DNA of 64,000 nucleotides from Candidatus Harrisonbacteria bacterium CG10_big_fil_rev_8_21_14_0_10_40_38 (GCA_002773535.1 PFAZ01000001.1:154806-218805), one strand, 5' to 3'; counted from the first letter of the stretch, positions 23,122-53,633 are shown. Translations and numbers: made by a program. Notes: a model not told the origin generated them from the sequence alone.

Positions 23122-23724
23122 TTAGTCTTTAGTTTTTATTTGCACATCTCCTTCTCGTAAAACAATCACCTTTCCCCTCTTTACCTCAATGAGCGTCGAG
23201 GGTTTACTCGATGTTTTACCAGATACATAAAAATCAATTTTATCTCCAAAATATTTTTTTGCCTCTTGGATATTTCCCGCAGGCTTCTCCCCTTCAGGGT
23301 TTGCAGACGGCGCAACCAAAGGACTAATTTCAGAAACGAGAGAAATCAGTTTTTTATTTTTTGGCATTCGAAAAGCAAGCTTTTTTGTCCCCCTGTGAAG
23401 ATATTTAAAAATAGGATCTCCCGCAGGCAAAATCACACTCACCTTATCCGGCCAAATTTTTTTCAAAAACTCTAGAGTTTCAATGTTGAGTTTTATTTTG
23501 AAAAGTTCCAAGTCATTTATAGATGAAATCAAAATAATAAACGGCTTTTTGGGGTTTCGTCCTTTCGCTTCATAAATTCTCTCAACTGTTTTTGGTCGTA
23601 ATGCCTGCCCTAAAATCCCATATATAGTATCGGTAGCCAAAACCCCAACACCCCCATCCCTCAAAATTTTTTTATACGAAACTTTCATACAAAACCAAAT
23701 CTCACACTTTAAAATACCCATCAA
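23122..23724 (-). CDS. tsaC: L-threonylcarbamoyladenylate synthase (YrdC/TsaC family)
   Basis: The GGVGVLATDTIYGILGQA motif. Confidence 0.75.
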   Translation of the reverse strand: MMGILKCEIWFCMKVSYKKILRDGGVGVLATDTIYGILGQALRPKTVERIYEAKGRNPKKPFIILISSINDLELFKIKLNIETLEFLKKIWPDKVSVILPAGDPIFKYLHRGTKKLAFRMPKNKKLISLVSEISPLVAPSANPEGEKPAGNIQEAKKYFGDKIDFYVSGKTSSKPSTLIEVKRGKVIVLREGDVQIKTKD

Positions 23725-24310
23725 TTTCCGTCAGTATACCCGACACGCCATGAACAATAGCCACAGGATTACCTCTCTGCAACGTCTCTACAGGATGTAT
23801 CCCCCACGAGACACCGATAGCATTCACGCCGGTGTGTTCCGCTTCTCTCATATCACCAAGCGTGTCAGTTACAAAGATACAGTCACCAGAACCAACTCCA
23901 TATTCCGAAAAAACCATATTTATCTTTTCAACCTTGCTCTTATGAACATCTGAGCCAAACACCTTGTCAAAATACTGTAACAGATTAAATTTTGAAAGAT
24001 ACTCCTCAATCGAACTACTAATAGTCGAAGACACAACAACAAGTAAATATTTTTTATGAAGAGAACCTAGAACATCTTCAATTCCAGAAATCGGATAAGT
24101 TTCCATTAGACGAGGATTATATATTTTAAAAAAATCCTCATTTTCATCTTTCCTGTTTTTATGCTTCGGCCGATCATAAATACTCCCCTCAAACCAAGTT
24201 AAATATTCATTTTTTGAAAGCGTCGGTCTAAAACCATTACTTATTTCAAACGATAAATCACAGGTATCAACGATCACCCCATCAAAATCAAACAAAACAA
24301 TTTTTTTCAT
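23702..24310 (-). CDS. HAD-superfamily hydrolase
   Basis: VLFDFDGVIVDT motif I; the 3' end overlaps the tsaC start. Confidence 0.75.
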   Translation of the reverse strand: MKKIVLFDFDGVIVDTCDLSFEISNGFRPTLSKNEYLTWFEGSIYDRPKHKNRKDENEDFFKIYNPRLMETYPISGIEDVLGSLHKKYLLVVVSSTISSSIEEYLSKFNLLQYFDKVFGSDVHKSKVEKINMVFSEYGVGSGDCIFVTDTLGDMREAEHTGVNAIGVSWGIHPVETLQRGNPVAIVHGVSGILTEIDGYFKV

Positions 24311-24325
24311 ATTTCTACTCTAATC

Positions 24326-24973
24326 CTATAATTTCTCCACAATACTTCCAATCGACGACTGAAAATTATCATCACTTATTTCAAAATACGGAAAACCATA
24401 TTTTTCCGCTTCAGATTTAAAATACAAACTCATCTCTTTTATGAAACTAGCCATCGCTTCAATTCTTTCTTCGCTATAACCCAGAGCACTCATCCAATCT
24501 TTTCGGGGAAAATCCCTTACATGCTCCAACAACGACTTTAAATGATTTTCGCTGGTGTTTCCTACAAAAACTACATTTTCTGGCTTGTTTTTCATTCCAG
24601 CAACAAGAGATGAAATTATTGCAACTCCTTCTACAATATGAACAGTGTCGTCTTCGCAAAAACTATTACAAAAAGATTCAATAGATGACCACAATGCTTT
24701 TGATTCTCGATTTTGATATTCAACAATTTTTTTCGGATTGTTTAAATGGTTTTCAATCCATTCCTTTTCTGATACAGTCTCCGTTTTCTCAACAATAAAA
24801 AGATCGCCGTCTTTTTGAAAAGATGTTTTCCTTGCTGCATTTCTTATGGCATCAGTCGACACAACGTGTCCATGCACCTTATCGGCAAGCGCAAAAGCAA
24901 TAATTGATTTACCAACTCGTGGTGGCCCTCCTAAAAAATATGTACGCTGAAGCGCATTATTATCTGAATTCAT
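24326..24973 (-). CDS. P-loop NTPase / kinase-like protein
   Basis: GGPPRVGKSIIAFALA Walker A near the N-terminus. Confidence 0.5.
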   Translation of the reverse strand: MNSDNNALQRTYFLGGPPRVGKSIIAFALADKVHGHVVSTDAIRNAARKTSFQKDGDLFIVEKTETVSEKEWIENHLNNPKKIVEYQNRESKALWSSIESFCNSFCEDDTVHIVEGVAIISSLVAGMKNKPENVVFVGNTSENHLKSLLEHVRDFPRKDWMSALGYSEERIEAMASFIKEMSLYFKSEAEKYGFPYFEISDDNFQSSIGSIVEKL

Positions 24974-25078
24974 AGTTTTAAGTTTTTAGTTGTTTGTTTT
25001 TAGTCATTAGTTAGGTTAATTAGGTTAATTAGAAATTTGTTTTAAGTTATTAGTTGTAAGTTGTCAGTTGTAAGTCTC

Positions 25079-25489
25079 TCACACCAAATCCCCCAACTCC
25101 GGTTTTTTATAATTCGGTCCCTTGAGAAACTTTCCGTCTTCCCGATACATCGGCTTCCCATTTTCATCAAGTTTACTCATGTTTGACTCATGTACACGAA
25201 CAAATGCTTCACGAAAATTCCGAAGCTGTTTTATCGAAACCGCAGTTCCGGAAAGAACCACCTGAACATCCGCCATCTCTTTAAGCATGTTTTCAAAATT
25301 TGCCTTTTCAATTTTCTCTCCTTTCTCCAGTTTTTCAATAGCAAAGTCTAGTTCTTCAACTAACTCTCTAACTTCTTCTAAAATAAGTTTTTTGCGCAAA
25401 TTAAGAAGCTCCACGGTCGGCTCTCCAGAAATCACCAACCCGAAAGCTTTATTCAACTCCACTACATATTCCTCATTTGTTTTATCCAT
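25079..25489 (-). CDS. MazG-like nucleotide pyrophosphohydrolase (tentative)
   Basis: All-helical 136 aa with EEVRELVEE...EMADVQVV, reminiscent of MazG/NTP-PPase EExxE...D motifs. Confidence 0.4.
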   Translation of the reverse strand: MDKTNEEYVVELNKAFGLVISGEPTVELLNLRKKLILEEVRELVEELDFAIEKLEKGEKIEKANFENMLKEMADVQVVLSGTAVSIKQLRNFREAFVRVHESNMSKLDENGKPMYREDGKFLKGPNYKKPELGDLV

Positions 25490-25490
25490 T

Positions 25491-25563
25491 GCTGCGGGAC
25501 AGGGAATCGAACCCCAATTTCTTGGTTCAGAGCCAAGCGTCCTACCGTTAGACGATCCCGCAA
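25491..25563 (-). tRNA. tRNA-Gln (anticodon CTG)
   Basis: Cloverleaf drawn by hand: acceptor TGCGGGA/TCCCGCA, D arm GTCT-AACGGTA-GGAC, anticodon stem CTTGG/CCAAG with loop CTCTGAA, T arm TGGGG-TTCGATT-CCCTG. Confidence 0.7.
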
Positions 25564-25687
25564 AAATTACTTAACTAATTTACAGGGCGATCCTGCGAAA
25601 ACCATTTTTAAAGACTCCTTTTTATGGAGTCTTTAAATTCGGTGCTTTTATTCTACCTTTTCATTCAGGTTTTTCAACTATCTCCGA

Positions 25688-26911
25688 CTAATCAATGAAC
25701 GTAAGCGCTTGTCCTCTCTGACCGGCTCTTCCGGTTCTTCCAATACGATGAACATAGTCTTCGTAGCAATTTGGAACATCAAAGTTAATCACGTGTGAGA
25801 CATTTGGTATATCAAGTCCCCTTGCCGCCACGTCAGTAGCTACAAGAATCTTAACCTGATTTCTCTTAAAGGCAATAAGTGCCCTCTGCCTGTGAAACTG
25901 TGTTTTGTTTCCATGGATAGAAGCTGATCTAAAACCCTTAGAATCAAGAATTTTAGAAAGTTTTTCTACGCCATATTTTGTCCTTCCAAAGATAAGCACC
26001 TTATCAAATTCCGGTTTGGACAAAAGCTCGTACAACACATCAACTTTATTTTTTCCGGCTACCCTCACAACATCCTGATTAACGGTTTTTGCCGTATCTC
26101 CGGTCTTTACCGATACCCGAATAGGGTCAGAAAGAAAGTTTCCGATCAAAGCTTCGATTTCACGCGAAAGTGTCGCAGAAAAAAACAAAGTATGCCTCGG
26201 TTTCTTCACATGAGAAACGATAAATTTAATGTCACCGATAAATCCCATATCAAGCATCCTATCTGCCTCGTCCAAAACAAGTGTTCCAAAACGAGAAAGA
26301 TCGAGCGCTTTTCGATTTATCAAATCCTTTAATCTTCCGGGTGTGCCGATTACAAAATTAGGATTATATCGGAGCGCCCTCATTTGCGGATTTATATTTG
26401 CTCCACCAACAAGGATTACAGAGTTAAGTCTTGAATCGCGAGAAAATCCACGAAACTCTTCATCGATCTGTATCGCAAGTTCGCGAGTCGGTACGACAAT
26501 CAAAACTCTTTCATTTCTAGACTTCATCACTTTATTTAAAAGTGGAATCAAAAATGCTCCGGTTTTTCCTGTTCCGGTATTTGCAATACCAACAATATCT
26601 TTACCTGACAAAATCGCAGGAATAGATTGATCCTGAATAGGTGTCGGTGTTTTATAGCCCTTTTTCTCGATATTTCTCTTTATAAGAGAATCTATTTCAA
26701 AATCAGCAAAGCTGTATTTTGGTTCGTATGCCACGACTTCTTCAGCCGGTTGAGCTTTATTGATGAATCGAGAAACATCAATCCCCGCTCCTGTATTTCT
26801 TTTCGAACTACGCCTAGGCCCACGATATGGAGCTCGGCTAAAATTACCCCTATCGCGTGTAAAAGGTCTTCGCACGGAAGACGCGCTGTTATTTTTATAA
26901 TAAGTTTTCAT
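25688..26911 (-). CDS. DEAD-box ATP-dependent RNA helicase
   Basis: Q motif, GTGKTGAF Walker A, VLDEADRMLD, SAT, HRIGRTGRAG. Confidence 0.9.
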   Translation of the reverse strand: MKTYYKNNSASSVRRPFTRDRGNFSRAPYRGPRRSSKRNTGAGIDVSRFINKAQPAEEVVAYEPKYSFADFEIDSLIKRNIEKKGYKTPTPIQDQSIPAILSGKDIVGIANTGTGKTGAFLIPLLNKVMKSRNERVLIVVPTRELAIQIDEEFRGFSRDSRLNSVILVGGANINPQMRALRYNPNFVIGTPGRLKDLINRKALDLSRFGTLVLDEADRMLDMGFIGDIKFIVSHVKKPRHTLFFSATLSREIEALIGNFLSDPIRVSVKTGDTAKTVNQDVVRVAGKNKVDVLYELLSKPEFDKVLIFGRTKYGVEKLSKILDSKGFRSASIHGNKTQFHRQRALIAFKRNQVKILVATDVAARGLDIPNVSHVINFDVPNCYEDYVHRIGRTGRAGQRGQALTFID

Positions 26912-27091
26912 AATGTAGGTCAGACAGACTCGAAAGAGGTTCAGATAAAAAGTAATTGATTAATGATACGAACGACCTCGGGAAACTCCCAAGGCCGGTT
27001 AAACCTATACAATTGAGAAAGTTAGACAAGAACATTGTAGCAAATGACACTCAACTTGTCAATACAACTCAAAAAACACATATTTTATATA

Positions 27092-27127
27092 AAAAAGAGC
27101 CCTGTTCCGAAAGATCGGAACAGGGCT
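27092..27127 (-). terminator. rho-independent terminator for the GC-rich gene
   Basis: GCCCTGTTCCGatctttCGGAACAGGGC 11-bp stem followed on the minus strand by TCTTTTTTA. Confidence 0.55.
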
Positions 27128-27338
27128 AAGCCTGCCTGTCGGCAGACAGGTCCCGAGAGTCTTAGGATTGAGAACCGACTTGCGACGCGACGAACGCGAA
27201 CCCGCTACCATGACCCCACCCGTCGAAAGACCGCCCGTTGCACGCATGGAGCCAGCGACCACCGTCGTGACGGCTAGAGCGCAGCAAGACCGGACCGCCG
27301 CCGGAGTCATTGATGGGTTCGTGCATTGCGACGATCCA

Positions 27339-27803
27339 TCAGAGACCCATGGCTTTGATCTCCTTGTCTGCGAACTTCTCACGAATGAGGCAGGCCAATT
27401 CGGCATTCGGTTTTGGCAACTTGCGCTTGGCGGCCTCGGCGCGAATCTTCTTCGTGACCCGATTGTTGTACTTAAAGAGACAGCCCAGAAGAACGGCGAC
27501 TTCGGTCGTGAGGCCCTTGGTTGGCTTGAAGCCCGACGAACGGAGCACCTGCTTGGCGGAGTCACCTATGCGGAAGCCGTTGCCTTCCAGACGCTTGATC
27601 CAGTCCTCGCCGGTCGTGCCGTCCGAGGTGACCGAGAAGTAGATGACACTGTCTTCCTTGCGCCATTTTCGTTTTTGTTCAGAAACCACAAGATCACCAC
27701 GAAGGAGTTGATCAACTCCTTCCTCGCCACCGAGAATGTTCCACACGGCCTGAATGCGATCCACGGTTCTGTTGTTCTTTGCCACTTTGTCCTCCTTGCT
27801 CAT
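27339..27803 (-). CDS. hypothetical protein encoded in a high-GC insert
   Basis: About 154 codons with strongly G/C-biased third positions, e.g. GGC GAG GAC TGG ATC AAG CGT CTG, unlike the host genes. Opposite-strand shadow ORFs in the ORF track are the usual artefact of high-GC DNA. Confidence 0.5.
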   Translation of the reverse strand: MSKEDKVAKNNRTVDRIQAVWNILGGEEGVDQLLRGDLVVSEQKRKWRKEDSVIYFSVTSDGTTGEDWIKRLEGNGFRIGDSAKQVLRSSGFKPTKGLTTEVAVLLGCLFKYNNRVTKKIRAEAAKRKLPKPNAELACLIREKFADKEIKAMGL

Positions 27804-28066
27804 ATAGAGCACTTAGGTTAAGTCTCTGCTCGTATAGAGCAGAGACACTGGACAGGTTTAGTCACAGCCAGAAAATGCTAAATTTCAAAGTCGCAAGTAA
27901 GCACCATTTGGCTGTGACTAAATATTTCTCAAGTTTTTTAAAGTACTAAAGTACACACAAAAGAATATAATAATAATTCATATCTGTCAAATTAATCCAC
28001 AAATTTGACTTAACAAAATCATGCTTGCATAGTACTCAAACTAGTCATATCATCAATAGACATACT

Positions 28067-28627
28067 ATGAAAAAACTGGTTTTATTACTCGTTTTAGGCG
28101 CTTTATTCTATATAGGTATACGATGGGCCCAAAATGTCCACGAAGAGGCCTCATTTTGCACCCTGGATGGCAAAATATGCCCAAATGGCGCAGTAGTAGG
28201 CAGAATCCCTCCAACTTGTGAATTTGCTCCGTGTGATACCCAAAAATGGAAAACAAAACGTGAAGGCATGGTTGAATTTCAATACCCTGACAGTTTGGAA
28301 ACAACCTATATAGGCGCCCATGAATGGCCGCCCCAGATAACCATAGAAGCCCAACAAAAGGCATGCACCGGTTCAACTCGTAAAATGAACGGCAAAACTT
28401 ATTGCATAAACAGCGAAGTCGGCGCCGCCGCAGGAAGCACATACATTACCTACACATACGAAACAGCACGCGGAGGCAACACCGTCCGAGCAGTATTCAC
28501 TCTTCGCTACCCACAATGTGGTAACTACGCAGAAGGCCCCGAACAAAAGAAGTGCGAGGACGAACAAAACTCATTTAACCTCGACGCCCTTATAGACGGC
28601 ATCATCCGAACCGTCAGAGTTTTCTAA
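28067..28627 (+). CDS. secreted Cys-rich protein
   Basis: MKKLVLLLVLGALFYIGIRWAQN signal/anchor followed by 10 Cys; GC moderately elevated. Confidence 0.5.
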   Translation: MKKLVLLLVLGALFYIGIRWAQNVHEEASFCTLDGKICPNGAVVGRIPPTCEFAPCDTQKWKTKREGMVEFQYPDSLETTYIGAHEWPPQITIEAQQKACTGSTRKMNGKTYCINSEVGAAAGSTYITYTYETARGGNTVRAVFTLRYPQCGNYAEGPEQKKCEDEQNSFNLDALIDGIIRTVRVF

Positions 28628-28689
28628 AACAAAAAAACCGCGAGGCGGATCGGTTTTACCGATCACATTCCTCGCGGCTGTACCACTCG

Positions 28690-29346
28690 TCAATCGACGA
28701 ACGGTATCGTCACGCATATTCCCAAGTATCCATCAGAATCATCTTCATCCCAAGAATCAATAACCCAGCCATCATTCTCGTTGTCCCCGATATATATCGG
28801 TTTCCACCCTTCACTCCAAGTAGCAGACCAGTGAGAATTGTCATTGAGCAAGATCTCTCCACGTAGGTGACGAAAAGACACAAGTGCCTGCGCCACATGA
28901 GCGAGCTCCGCTCGATATAGAATTCGCGATTCATTTCTCCGCAGGTTTTCTTGAACGTCCCAAGAATATCCTACAAACCTTGGCGCAAAATCAATCAACT
29001 TGTATCCAGACGGTGGCTCAGAAATAGCCCAACTGTCAGAAGTTGGTTGATTTATGAAATATGGCAATCTCGCAGTCGGCAAATTTGGCTGAAAACTTCT
29101 TGCGTTTGAAATAAGAACCCTCACAGAAAATGGAAGACAGTACACAACCCTCCAGTCACACCCATTCTCTTCATTCTCTCTTGCGCACGCCTCCATGAGT
29201 CTGATGTTATTAGGTCCGGTAGGGGGCTTAAAAAGCCCGTAATCACCCTCTTGCCCGTAGACAGAAGCGACTTCATTAGCCGAGAGATAACGCTCACTGC
29301 CGAAGATTCTCAGAGCATCGCTTCGTCGTCTACCCAACAAATTCAT
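28690..29346 (-). CDS. hypothetical protein
   Basis: 218-aa ORF; GC moderately elevated; no motif recognised. Confidence 0.45.
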   Translation of the reverse strand: MNLLGRRRSDALRIFGSERYLSANEVASVYGQEGDYGLFKPPTGPNNIRLMEACARENEENGCDWRVVYCLPFSVRVLISNARSFQPNLPTARLPYFINQPTSDSWAISEPPSGYKLIDFAPRFVGYSWDVQENLRRNESRILYRAELAHVAQALVSFRHLRGEILLNDNSHWSATWSEGWKPIYIGDNENDGWVIDSWDEDDSDGYLGICVTIPFVD

Positions 29347-52081: not shown

Positions 52082-52900
52082 TTACAAAGGGCTCTTAATA
52101 TTTTTTAATCGTGGGTTTGTTACCTGCGCATATACTTGAGTTGTCCTTATACTGCTATGTCCAAGTAGCTCCTGTACATACCGAACATCTGTCCCATTTT
52201 CCAACAAATGAGTAGCAAAAGAGTGTCGTAAAGAATGAAACGTTGCGGGTTTGATAACTTTTGCCCCCACCAAACTTTTACGAAACATTTTTTGTAAAGA
52301 TGTAGCTGTTAGTTTACCGCCACGATTAGAGGAAAAAATAAAATCATCGGCACGTTTTCCCGCAATGATATTACGGAGGGAATCTTGCAGTTTTTCCGAC
52401 ATAACGCTGATCCGGTCTTTTTTACCTTTTGCTCCTTTGATATACACGGTGAATTCGTCAATACTTAGATCGGCGACTTTTAACTGCACAACTTCGCTTA
52501 CCCGCAGTCCGGACGCGTAACTCAAGGCGATCATTATCCGATATTTTGCGTTTTCGGTGGCGTTGATAATTTTCTCAATTTCTGCCCGCGACAACACGAT
52601 TGGTAGTTTTTTATTTTTTTTTGCAAATTTTAGGTCAATCTTCTGCGGATCTTTTAAAACTTCTGCATATAAAAATTTTACCGCGTTAAGTGCAAGGTTG
52701 ATTGTCTGCGGAGATTGTCCACGTTTGTGTTTATCAAGTAAAAATTCCTCAATTGCTTTTTGTTTGTCTTTGACTCCTTCTCTCTTAGAAAAGCTGATAT
52801 ACTCCTTTATGTAGAGCATGTATGCGTTGCGGGTCTTTAGGGAGTAGTTGCGGAGCCTCAAAACCCGCTCGGTCTTATCCAAAATATTCTCCATAAACAA
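52082..52900 (-). CDS. tyrosine recombinase (XerC/XerD/phage-integrase family)
   Basis: C-terminal catalytic box HSLRHSFATHLLENGTDVRYVQELLGHSSIRTTQVYAQV (R...HxxR...Y). Confidence 0.85.
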   Translation of the reverse strand: MFMENILDKTERVLRLRNYSLKTRNAYMLYIKEYISFSKREGVKDKQKAIEEFLLDKHKRGQSPQTINLALNAVKFLYAEVLKDPQKIDLKFAKKNKKLPIVLSRAEIEKIINATENAKYRIMIALSYASGLRVSEVVQLKVADLSIDEFTVYIKGAKGKKDRISVMSEKLQDSLRNIIAGKRADDFIFSSNRGGKLTATSLQKMFRKSLVGAKVIKPATFHSLRHSFATHLLENGTDVRYVQELLGHSSIRTTQVYAQVTNPRLKNIKSPL

Positions 52901-53093: not shown

Positions 53094-53633
53094 GTTCCAC
53101 AAATGAGAAATTCTTGATTATTTTTTTACATTTTGATTGGGCTTTTTACAATTTTTGCTCTCAAAAAGAAAAAGGCCACCGATGTTACTCGATGGCCTTG
53201 GGTTGGGATCTGCTCGTGGCGGGCGGGCGGCTCACCACATCTCGTCCATCTCCCGCTGGGCGAGCCTGTTCGCGGGGATGAGTCCCCACTCCTCGGGCAT
53301 GTCGTCTCCGACGTCCAGCCCGGGGCAGTCGGGCTTCTCGACAAAGATGTGTTTGCCATTGACCTCGCGAACGAGGCCGCCACCTTGGGTTCCCCAGACG
53401 GGGTAGCTGTAGGTACGATCCGTGCTCATGTCGATCCTCCTCGAGGGTTTGTGAAAGAGCAGATCCCGCCAACAGCGAGAGTCTGACCTTTCGGGTGAAA
53501 AGTAGCTTCATGCACTGTTGAACTCTAAATAATAGCATTTTTGAGAGCGTCTGTCAATAGTCCAGCAACACAAAAATTGCAAAAAGCCCTAAATTAAGGT
53601 AAAATAATCAAGAATTTCTCATTTGTTTCACCC
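53094..53633. mobile_element. TIR-bounded ~540-bp cassette with high-GC core (MITE-like passenger element or recombinase-associated invertible segment)
   Basis: Left end 53094-53157 and the reverse complement of right end 53571-53633 share ACAAATGAGAAATTCTTGATTATTTT (26/26) and GGGCTTTTT(A/G)CAATTTTTG. The interior, about 53160-53560, is strikingly GC-rich relative to the flanks. Confidence 0.45.
53232..53429 (-). CDS. 65-aa protein encoded in the high-GC core
   Basis: ATG preceded by a GAGGAGGATCGAC SD. Codons are almost all G/C-ending (MSTDRTYSYPVWGTQGGGLVREVNGKHIFVEKPDCPGLDVGDDMPEEWGLIPANRLAQREMDEMW). Confidence 0.5.
   Translation of the reverse strand: MSTDRTYSYPVWGTQGGGLVREVNGKHIFVEKPDCPGLDVGDDMPEEWGLIPANRLAQREMDEMW

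Follow-up and report, generated by a model that had tools for sequence, protein, structure and literature searches.

A probable stand-alone target-gene module of a Patescibacteria-type diversity-generating retroelement, with a conserved leader RNA and a premature stop codon

One clade of diversity-generating retroelements (DGRs) is restricted to Patescibacteria, is encoded by cells and acts on targets that lack recognisable domains (PMC8144416), and DGR targets that are not adjacent to their retroelement, or even remote from it, are known as well (PMC5758913). Here we describe a locus that compares closely with these systems. It lies in a stretch of 64,000 nucleotides (hereafter the window) from Candidatus Harrisonbacteria bacterium CG10_big_fil_rev_8_21_14_0_10_40_38 (GCA_002773535.1, PFAZ01000001.1:154806-218805), where an earlier note, made by reading the sequence, had described a GC-rich islet of foreign DNA with a gene of unknown family, a dedicated terminator and palindromic flanks. 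That interpretation overlooked both an interrupted reading frame and a connection to DGRs. We consider it very likely that positions 27091-27990 on the minus strand constitute a complete target-gene module of a Patescibacteria-type DGR, one that stands alone and was probably inactivated recently. The separate parts of this reading deserve separate grades: that the gene is a DGR target we regard as close to certain, and that the window copy is non-functional at present we hold with more reserve, as a judgement that leans towards yes.

The nature of the gene is most readily seen in its relatives. When one genome per GTDB species was scanned, 80 loci with the gene came up, many of which have, ~330 nt downstream of it, a further and weaker match that covers residues 167-211. 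One of these loci, L004, runs from the gene through a terminator, a ~135-nt near-copy of the gene's 3' end and a small open reading frame (ORF) on the minus strand to a reverse transcriptase (RT) ORF with a YADD motif. More generally, 26 related loci carry a copy of the last ~135 nt of the gene ~470 nt downstream, on the same strand and beside genes for bAvd and RT. The RT ORFs match Pfam RVT_1 at 64-90 bits, with the RT located ~0.9 kb downstream of the ortholog in ~20 loci; the bAvd ORF, which matches PF22296 at 40.1 bits (cut-off 40), sits between the copy and the RT in 25 of the related loci. Over the 26 loci, gene and copy mismatch 456 times at adenines of the copy versus 188 times at other bases, and in some loci the mismatches fall on adenines exclusively (19 of 19, 15 of 15 and 16 of 16). 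Differences concentrated at the adenines of the copy are the hallmark of a DGR, and the arrangement is the one that defines such elements: the gene in these loci is the target, its 3' end the variable region (VR) and the downstream copy the template repeat (TR). In such complete cassettes the TR would be transcribed and then reverse-transcribed by the RT with bAvd, errors arising at adenines, and the resulting cDNA would replace the VR, which in principle could generate ~1e16 variants of the binding site (a count made from the consensus TR).

The window gene is an ortholog of these demonstrable DGR targets. Its full-length protein is 60-70% identical to targets with an adjacent TR and RT (for example L002, L004 and L005), and promoter, leader, hairpin and terminator are likewise conserved with such orthologs. 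Taking the interrupted 154-codon ORF as the query, we find more than 950 homologs, all of them unnamed, from Patescibacteria/Parcubacteria assemblies, 65-76% identical and ~205-211 aa long. The earlier note could assign the protein to no family, and profile searches agree: Pfam, NCBIfam, PHROGs and PADLOC hold no family for the window ORF or for full-length homologs, and a sequence-profile search of the PDB gave nothing below E=0.1. In the structural model, the protein adopts the C-type-lectin (CLec) fold seen in Mtd and TvpA, with its variable residues in the C-terminal strands, which points to membership of that fold class; there is no profile match to any described CLec/FGE (formylglycine-generating enzyme) family in the databases just named. 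As we reconstruct it, the module would encode a small, signal-less CLec-fold protein of 207 aa whose last ~45 codons form the VR.

How does this family relate to described DGRs? Host group is shared with the cellular DGRs of Patescibacteria, or the candidate phyla radiation (CPR) ('DGR clade 2', Roux et al. 2021, PMC8144416; Wu et al. 2018, PMC5758913), as are the set of parts found in related loci (target with VR, TR, bAvd and RT), adenine-specific mutation, and small targets without signal peptide, transmembrane segment or Pfam domain. The differences are that related loci have bAvd on the strand opposite to TR and RT, and that the window copy has no TR, bAvd or RT in 64 kb and carries a premature TGA. 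Likenesses extend to Bordetella phage BPP-1 (Mtd) and Treponema denticola TvpA, with which the family shares AAC-rich TR codons that are unable to mutate to stops, and to Treponema in that there are several non-adjacent targets. Unlike Mtd and TvpA, however, to which it has no detectable sequence similarity, the window-family protein is much smaller and single-domain, has no lipoprotein or secretion signal, and is not phage-borne: IMG/VR viral contigs contain no relatives of the gene, and a phage origin was rejected. A minimal CLec-fold DGR target is also reported from an ultra-small uncultivated organism, namely the nanoarchaeal AvpA. On this comparison the gene falls within a known system and is nothing out of the ordinary there, being a variable-protein gene of a DGR of the Patescibacteria type.

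The VR of the window copy, aligned to the TR of locus L054, occupies 27181-27307 on the minus strand and is strikingly poor in adenine, which makes up 9% of its sense strand compared to 24% in TRs. Against the L054 TR, the closest heterologous template, it differs at 21 of the 31 sites where the template has an adenine and at 10 of the 96 other sites (Fisher p=1.4e-9). Since this is the adenine-specific signature of DGR mutagenesis, the copy would seem to have been diversified in the past, presumably from a cognate TR. In the BPP-1/TvpA systems the VR has a GC-rich 3' end that is followed by a short hairpin with a 4-nt loop. The family studied here may have a comparable arrangement, with an end that resembles an initiation-of-mutagenic-homing (IMH) site: the window VR ends in GGGTTCGCGTTCGTCGCGTCGCAA, GC-rich and two changes away from the family consensus, and ~30 nt downstream, at 27131-27150 on the minus strand, RNA folding predicts a short GC-rich hairpin with a 7-bp stem and a 4-nt loop (CCTGCCTGTCGGCAGACAGG on the plus strand), located between the stop codon and the terminator. 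By analogy with phage BPP-1, this may be a target-recognition hairpin of the DGR. Most relatives have GGGAC-TTCA-GTCCC in its place. L057 has that usual hairpin plus a perfect palindrome, CCTGCCTGCCGGCAGGCAGG, at the same place, and this palindrome and the near-palindrome CCTGCCTGTCGGCAGACAGG may be a small mobile palindromic insert.

In the window the gene is interrupted. A minus-strand ORF runs from an ATG at 27803 to a TGA at 27339, and this is the 154-codon gene that the earlier note had reported, correctly as regards its existence and its G/C-ending codons (GC content at third codon positions, GC3, 0.69 in frame); it is, though, only the front of a longer gene. Past the TGA the frame continues for 58 more conserved codons to a TAA at 27162-27164. 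The start is likely the GTG at 27785, which stands behind an AAGGAGG and is also the start of the database protein P0001, and counted from there the full frame comprises 148 + 1 + 58 = 207 codons, equal to the family length. Of these, the first 148 (27342-27785, minus strand) would encode the N-terminal helices and most of the CLec-fold scaffold. The in-frame TGA (27339-27341, minus strand) falls, in the homolog alignment, on a tryptophan conserved throughout the family (GL-W-[WY]-IVAMHEP) and is one transition away from TGG. The remaining 58 codons plus TAA (27162-27338, minus strand) match the conserved C-termini of the homologs (WIVAMHEPINDS...GRWL...GFAF..SQ), the translation with read-through being ...EIKAMGL*WIVAMHEPINDSGGGP...GRWL...GFAFVASQVGSQS*, where asterisks mark stops. 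Given that the frame runs on to the TAA at family length, what had been taken for a GC-rich 3' untranslated region is the rest of the coding sequence, and the gene as written is truncated. In the model, the change from TGG to TGA would end translation 58 codons early and remove the strands that complete the lectin fold (residues ~150-200 of the model).

The TGA lies ten codons upstream of the VR and is therefore not a product of DGR mutagenesis. An alternative genetic code, with TGA read as Trp or Gly, can be ruled out: TGA ends 10 of the 54 long ORFs in the window, each time with further stops soon after, so that the code must be standard. Nor does the stop belong to the family, given that none of ~80 relatives has one at this codon. 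A second assembly, the independent ENA contig L081 (5573 nt, corresponding to window positions 23722-29303), has the identical TGA base. Beyond the TGA, no other lesion is seen in the 58 codons and the scaffold residues are preserved, and it is because of this undamaged remainder, together with the agreement between the two assemblies, that we judge the inactivation to be recent. Note that ORF callers split such a gene at one nonsense codon. In-frame stops inside or just after the VR occur in a few other family members, namely in the VR of L016, which reads ...RPDN*WNHGSGFAFAVSQ despite an adjacent TR, and in the C-termini of L007, L033 and L075; these may be occasional nonsense outcomes of mutagenic homing.

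One might suspect that the GC-rich stretch, and in particular the part at 27130-27340 that follows the TGA, is not coding at all, being instead a structured non-coding RNA. The region does fold better than shuffled sequence (-112.4 kcal/mol, z = -3.8), and both strands are open across it, as the earlier note had seen (27168-27821 on the plus strand, 217 aa, and 27339-27812 on the minus strand). However, translated in frame this segment yields the C-terminus that is conserved among more than 950 proteins, Rfam offers no match, variation is confined to the columns of TR adenines, and third codon positions are the most variable: across 77 homologs the mean pairwise difference at the three codon positions is 0.226, 0.194 and 0.365. 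The GC-rich sequence of the gene is coding, and we give the non-coding RNA, which we rejected as a candidate, practically no chance.

A different challenge to the reading of an inactivated copy is that the gene might still be functional, as a remote target served in trans, with the TGA being a minority allele, a base-call error, or a codon read through at a low level by tRNA-Trp. Our searches within the window bear on this. There is no second VR copy or TR in the 64 kb, and neither RT nor Avd could be found there with tblastn and hidden Markov models built from related loci (best score for the RT 9.7 bits), so that the copy stands alone, with no retroelement parts for at least 27 kb to one side of it and 36 kb to the other; as we picture it, the copy would once have been diversified and now be without TR, bAvd and RT in 64 kb. 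A search of JGI metagenomes for the cognate TR, using a window-specific 24-mer at the 3' end of the VR, gave 0 matches. Yet standing alone need not mean being defunct. No adjacent TR is found within at least 1.5 kb downstream in 43 of the 71 family copies that could be evaluated, and these copies are nonetheless intact and hypervariable at TR-adenine columns, where the column entropy is 1.49 bits in stand-alone VRs and 1.43 bits in VRs with an adjacent TR (other columns: 0.46 and 0.27, respectively); the TRs themselves are nearly invariant across the family. One metagenome-assembled genome (MAG), VMFZ01, holds both a stand-alone copy, L052, and another copy with its TR, L018, and the former differs from the TR of the latter at 18 adenine and 5 non-adenine sites, a pattern that suggests service in trans. 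Remote targets are documented, moreover (PMC5758913), the TGA sits exactly on the Trp codon, one transition from TGG, and both the frame and the conserved residues beyond it are intact. Against a functional gene stand the absence of TR and RT over the distances given, the standard code with its stops soon behind each TGA, the lack of a stop at this codon in any relative, and the fact that two assemblies, a 9-nt indel apart, agree on the TGA and are identical in the VR. On balance we consider a still-functional gene unlikely, although its probability is by no means negligible.

Four considerations weigh against our preferred reading, that of a once-diversified and probably recently inactivated module. 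First, a DGR lying beyond the window, more than 27-36 kb away, could serve the copy. Second, because neither a cognate TR nor an RT is visible for this genome, the adenine bias of the window VR is scored against TRs from other organisms only, and 10 differences at sites other than adenines remain. Third, the undamaged frame and intact scaffold residues after the TGA would likewise be compatible with a gene that works, the TGA being a sequencing or population variant or the UGA being read through. Finally, the GC richness of the non-variable part of the gene, to which we now turn, is described here with no explanation found.

The compositional anomaly as such is real. In 100-nt windows, GC content reaches 0.53-0.68 over 27.10-27.80 kb, the mean of the whole window being 0.40, and falls to ~0.27-0.42 at 27.0-27.1 kb and to 0.26-0.35 by 27.9 kb; the composition of the stretch that the earlier note had placed at ~27.13-27.83 kb is thus, by calculation of GC and GC3, far from uniform with its surroundings. 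Among the 64 long ORFs of the window, strong GC/GC3 outliers are limited to this region (27.1-27.8 kb) and a patch at 53.1-53.5 kb. What does not follow is that the DNA arrived recently from elsewhere. The target gene has a GC content of 49-64% in every homolog locus, whatever that of the host flanks, which range from 29 to 59%, and high GC is therefore a trait of the target gene family, atypical for the host as the earlier note had sensed, and not evidence of recent foreign arrival. In complete cassettes, mean GC is 0.58 for the N-terminal coding part, 0.66 for the VR, 0.56 for the TR and 0.45 for the spacer, compared to 0.37 for the RT region (a few loci without this stretch were entered as zero; where present it is 0.35-0.51) and 0.42 for host DNA upstream of the cassettes (loci without the stretch again entered as zero). 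In hosts whose GC content spans 29-59%, the non-variable part of the target gene stays at ~58% GC, with GC3 near 0.76, and the linked RT is host-like in composition. The VR is the GC-richest part of the gene because adenines are depleted there. High GC consequently has two sources: a GC-rich coding style common to the whole family, and the depletion of adenine in the VR.

The palindromes that the earlier note had placed at the flanks of an insertion turn out to belong to a structured RNA leader with four stems, 165 nt long in the window and located between promoter and ribosome-binding site (RBS). A covariance model (R1) of this leader matches the minus strand at 27784-27948, at the end of which lies the RBS AAGGAGG (27791-27797). 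The second palindrome corresponds to stems P1 and P1b (27857-27922, minus strand): its arms at 27857-27870 and 27909-27922 form a perfect outer stem of 14 bp, TTTAGTCACAGCCA/TGGCTGTGACTAAA, with an inner stem within, so that the repeat exists but with 14 bp and a 38-nt spacer in place of the 11 bp and 41 nt given previously, and it extends imperfectly inwards to a 28-nt arm. The first palindrome is stem P2 (27822-27846, minus strand), whose arms at 27822-27831 and 27837-27846, GTCTCTGCTC/GAGCAGAGAC, enclose a 5-nt loop; it too exists, being however 10 bp and not 11 bp long, as an outer A...A is unpaired. Stem P3 (27798-27810, minus strand, GCTC-TATAT-GAGC in the covariance-model alignment; GGGC-AAATTA-GCCC in most loci) abuts the RBS. 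An alignment of the upstream region of 50 loci shows the leader to be conserved in the order -10-like TGTATAAT, single-stranded start AGTTCTTTGATAAGACTTGCGAT, P1/P1b, P2 and P3, with P1 conserved as TGGTCATAGCGA...TCGCTATGACCA around P1b, and P3 followed directly by AAGGAG and the start codon. The window stems P1, P2 and P3 have other sequences than those of the relatives and pairing is kept; the hairpin equivalent to P2 differs in sequence in other loci.

This retention of pairing is borne out by an alignment (A4) that was made with MAFFT and without structural information. There, 91.7% of cells are paired, a share that drops to 36-49% once the partners are displaced by 1-3 columns; both sides vary in 18 of the 26 pairs, and none of 500 shuffles comes up to what is observed. 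Helices 1 and 2 (P1 and P1b) are 95-99% paired, with compensatory changes in 11 of 17 pairs; helix 3 (P2) shows changes on both sides in 4 of 5 pairs, and helix 4 is P3. RNAalifold independently finds P1 and P1b, with 11-13 compensatory pairs. In the 64 kb, R1 has a single real match, the one given above (67.5 bits, E=1.9e-14), the only other notable one being its mirror image on the opposite strand, and since the leader occurs but once, its palindromes are not repeated operator sites for a regulator; nor, as internal stems of a covarying RNA, are they the flanks of an insertion. R1 matches upstream of the target gene in more than 50 of the 80 loci, some of them outside the set from which the model was built. 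It also matches upstream of a second, unrelated family of small proteins, in L017 (beside bAvd and RT) and L044. These proteins (L017 2109-2845 and L044 3676-4335; 194 and 178 aa) have no Pfam match, and the L017 protein also has the N-terminal motif of ~35 residues (TLGxVEAVxNKLGG...FLRG); leader and N-terminal helix pair thus appear to be common to different DGR targets.

In length (~145 nt), multi-stem covarying architecture, position from promoter to RBS, and a last stem that abuts the Shine-Dalgarno sequence, the leader resembles riboswitch- or attenuator-like cis-regulatory leaders in Rfam. Unlike those, it has no family in Rfam 15, which yields only chance-level matches for both the window leader and the consensus leader (L004). 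We did not come across it in the DGR literature (PMC8144416, PMC5758913), which was searched for other terms only. A conserved, covarying leader RNA tied to DGR target genes hence seems to be undescribed. Its position between promoter and RBS suggests a regulatory role, and presumably it controls expression of the target. One specific mechanism, an anti-Shine-Dalgarno switch in P2, was dropped, the CCUCC motif of majority-type leaders not being conserved in window-type ones. P3 (TGCTCATATAGAGCA, 27797-27811) is a 14/15 copy of the tip of P2 (TGCTCGTATAGAGCA, 27827-27841), and one of the two may have arisen by duplication of the other in this lineage.

With the leader in place, the remaining limits of the module can be drawn. 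Upstream, a promoter-like site, TTGACA-17 nt-TATTCT (27962-27990, minus strand; 10 of 12 matches in a consensus scan), aligns with the conserved TGTATAAT-type -10 region that precedes the leader in related loci and probably acts as the promoter, with a transcription start predicted near 27955. Downstream, an intrinsic terminator at 27091-27127 on the minus strand consists of a 13-bp stem (27098-27110/27115-27127) with a 4-nt loop and a T-run, the stem, AGCCCTGTTCCGA, being conserved in most related loci. The dedicated terminator of the earlier note is therefore present, with a stem of 13 bp and not 11, and lies ~35 nt after the true end of the gene, which puts it ~210 nt past the TGA. The conserved module is delimited by this terminator and, at ~27990, by the promoter, and in order on the minus strand (27091-27990) it comprises promoter, leader, 207-codon gene, small hairpin and terminator. 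A discrete unit of ~0.9 kb with its own gene and terminator, as had been proposed, is indeed what we see, and it has its own promoter, too.

Could the module nonetheless be part of a recent horizontal islet of ~2.3 kb (27.05-29.35 kb), made up of foreign, GC-rich DNA with an unknown gene and with palindromes for edges or regulator sites? There are observations that would fit: the GC/GC3 outlier is genuine, near-identical cassettes recur in MAGs from more than one candidate phylum (by label Wolfebacteria, Azambacteria and Uhrbacteria, between which the linked RTs are 90-95% identical), contigs often break at the gene, and synonymous sites have changed less than the distance between the hosts would lead one to expect, identical codons being used at 70-82% of identical residues between the window gene and its best relatives. 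Horizontal spread of the gene family does seem to occur. Other observations argue against the islet. The gene keeps its GC content in hosts that range from 29 to 59% GC, the linked RT shows no GC enrichment, and the palindromes are covarying internal stems of an RNA with a single occurrence in the window. Two neighbouring ORFs at 28.0-29.4 kb, which the earlier note had called moderately GC-elevated, are so only mildly (GC 0.44-0.46, GC3 0.42-0.43, z ~1.6-1.7); those at 28.0-29.35 kb accompany the gene in 0 of the 80 other loci, so that their linkage to it was rejected. Because the module ends at ~27990 and these neighbours never co-occur with it, a 2.3-kb unit is unsupported. Between 26.85 and 28.15 kb we find no integrase and no meaningful flanking repeat or att-like site, candidate target-site duplications and direct repeats amounting to AT-rich matches at chance level.

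Two comparisons with other assemblies bear further on an islet. In L056, a 680-kb Parcubacteria contig (LiPW_30) from a distant genome, an intact stand-alone copy has immediately downstream of it a gene for a DEAD-box helicase, which shares 62% identity with that of the window, and L056 5971-8535 and window 25688-27785 have the same gene order. This points to long residence at the site or else to a site favoured for insertion; the gene can, at any rate, be stably resident. A chimeric assembly, for its part, is excluded as the origin of the junctions: contig L081, assembled independently, spans both of them with 0 mismatches. Its sole difference from the window is one 9-nt tandem copy near 25019, far from the module (the unit TAATTAACC, intergenic at ~25010-25030, has 2 copies in the window and 1 in L081), a strain-level tandem-repeat polymorphism. 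Taken together, we regard a recent islet as highly improbable and retain the reading of a DGR target-gene module.

The second GC outlier, at 53118-53540 (with 52085-52900), has a GC content of 0.57 and directly adjoins the gene of a tyrosine recombinase (Phage_integrase + Phage_int_SAM_4). No Pfam family matches the ORFs of the patch, and no Rfam hit is significant (AS1726 scores 29 bits, the gathering score being 50). We considered the patch as the place of the missing TR and RT and rejected it, there being no similarity to the DGR VR/TR and nothing in Pfam or Rfam that identifies it; an integrase-associated cassette is one possibility. The earlier note had paired the two patches as foreign insertions; they share no sequence. 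Among the related loci, contigs often end inside or beside the gene (L002, L003, L010, L021, L059, L066, L076, L078 and others), as expected if near-identical copies in co-occurring genomes disrupt assembly, and because of these breaks the number of DGR targets counted in MAGs is probably too low. Of 60 loci scanned, 10 have a tRNA-His(gtg) gene on the strand of the target module, 0.03-2.6 kb upstream of it (L004, L011, L013, L017, L020, L025, L027, L028, L032 and L038), a linkage that could represent conserved synteny or a tRNA-linked integration site.

What, then, may be new here is the leader RNA, along with the excess of stand-alone target modules over complete cassettes. Starting from these two features, that is, from the occurrence of the leader in two unrelated target families and the 43 of 71 copies that stand alone, we tentatively put forward a proposal that we find plausible without holding it to be probable: the ~145-nt leader would be a cis-acting RNA, undescribed so far, that is specific to the targets of DGRs in Parcubacteria; the GC-rich target modules, consisting of leader, gene, hairpin and terminator, would be portable; one RT/TR would serve many of them in trans; and the leader would gate the making or the diversifying of the variable protein.

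For the locus itself, a reading in terms of a foreign DNA islet is replaced by a concrete mechanism, in which the odd composition marks a target of hypermutation. This carries a caution for the interpretation of compositional outliers at large: a GC/GC3 outlier can reflect a conserved trait that is intrinsic to a gene family, and in part be a by-product of adenine mutagenesis, and does not have to imply recent transfer. Hypermutation targets are among the few adaptive tools of the genome-reduced CPR bacteria, and if stand-alone modules and their leader prove general, they would bear on how the targets of cellular DGRs are regulated and how they are recruited in trans.

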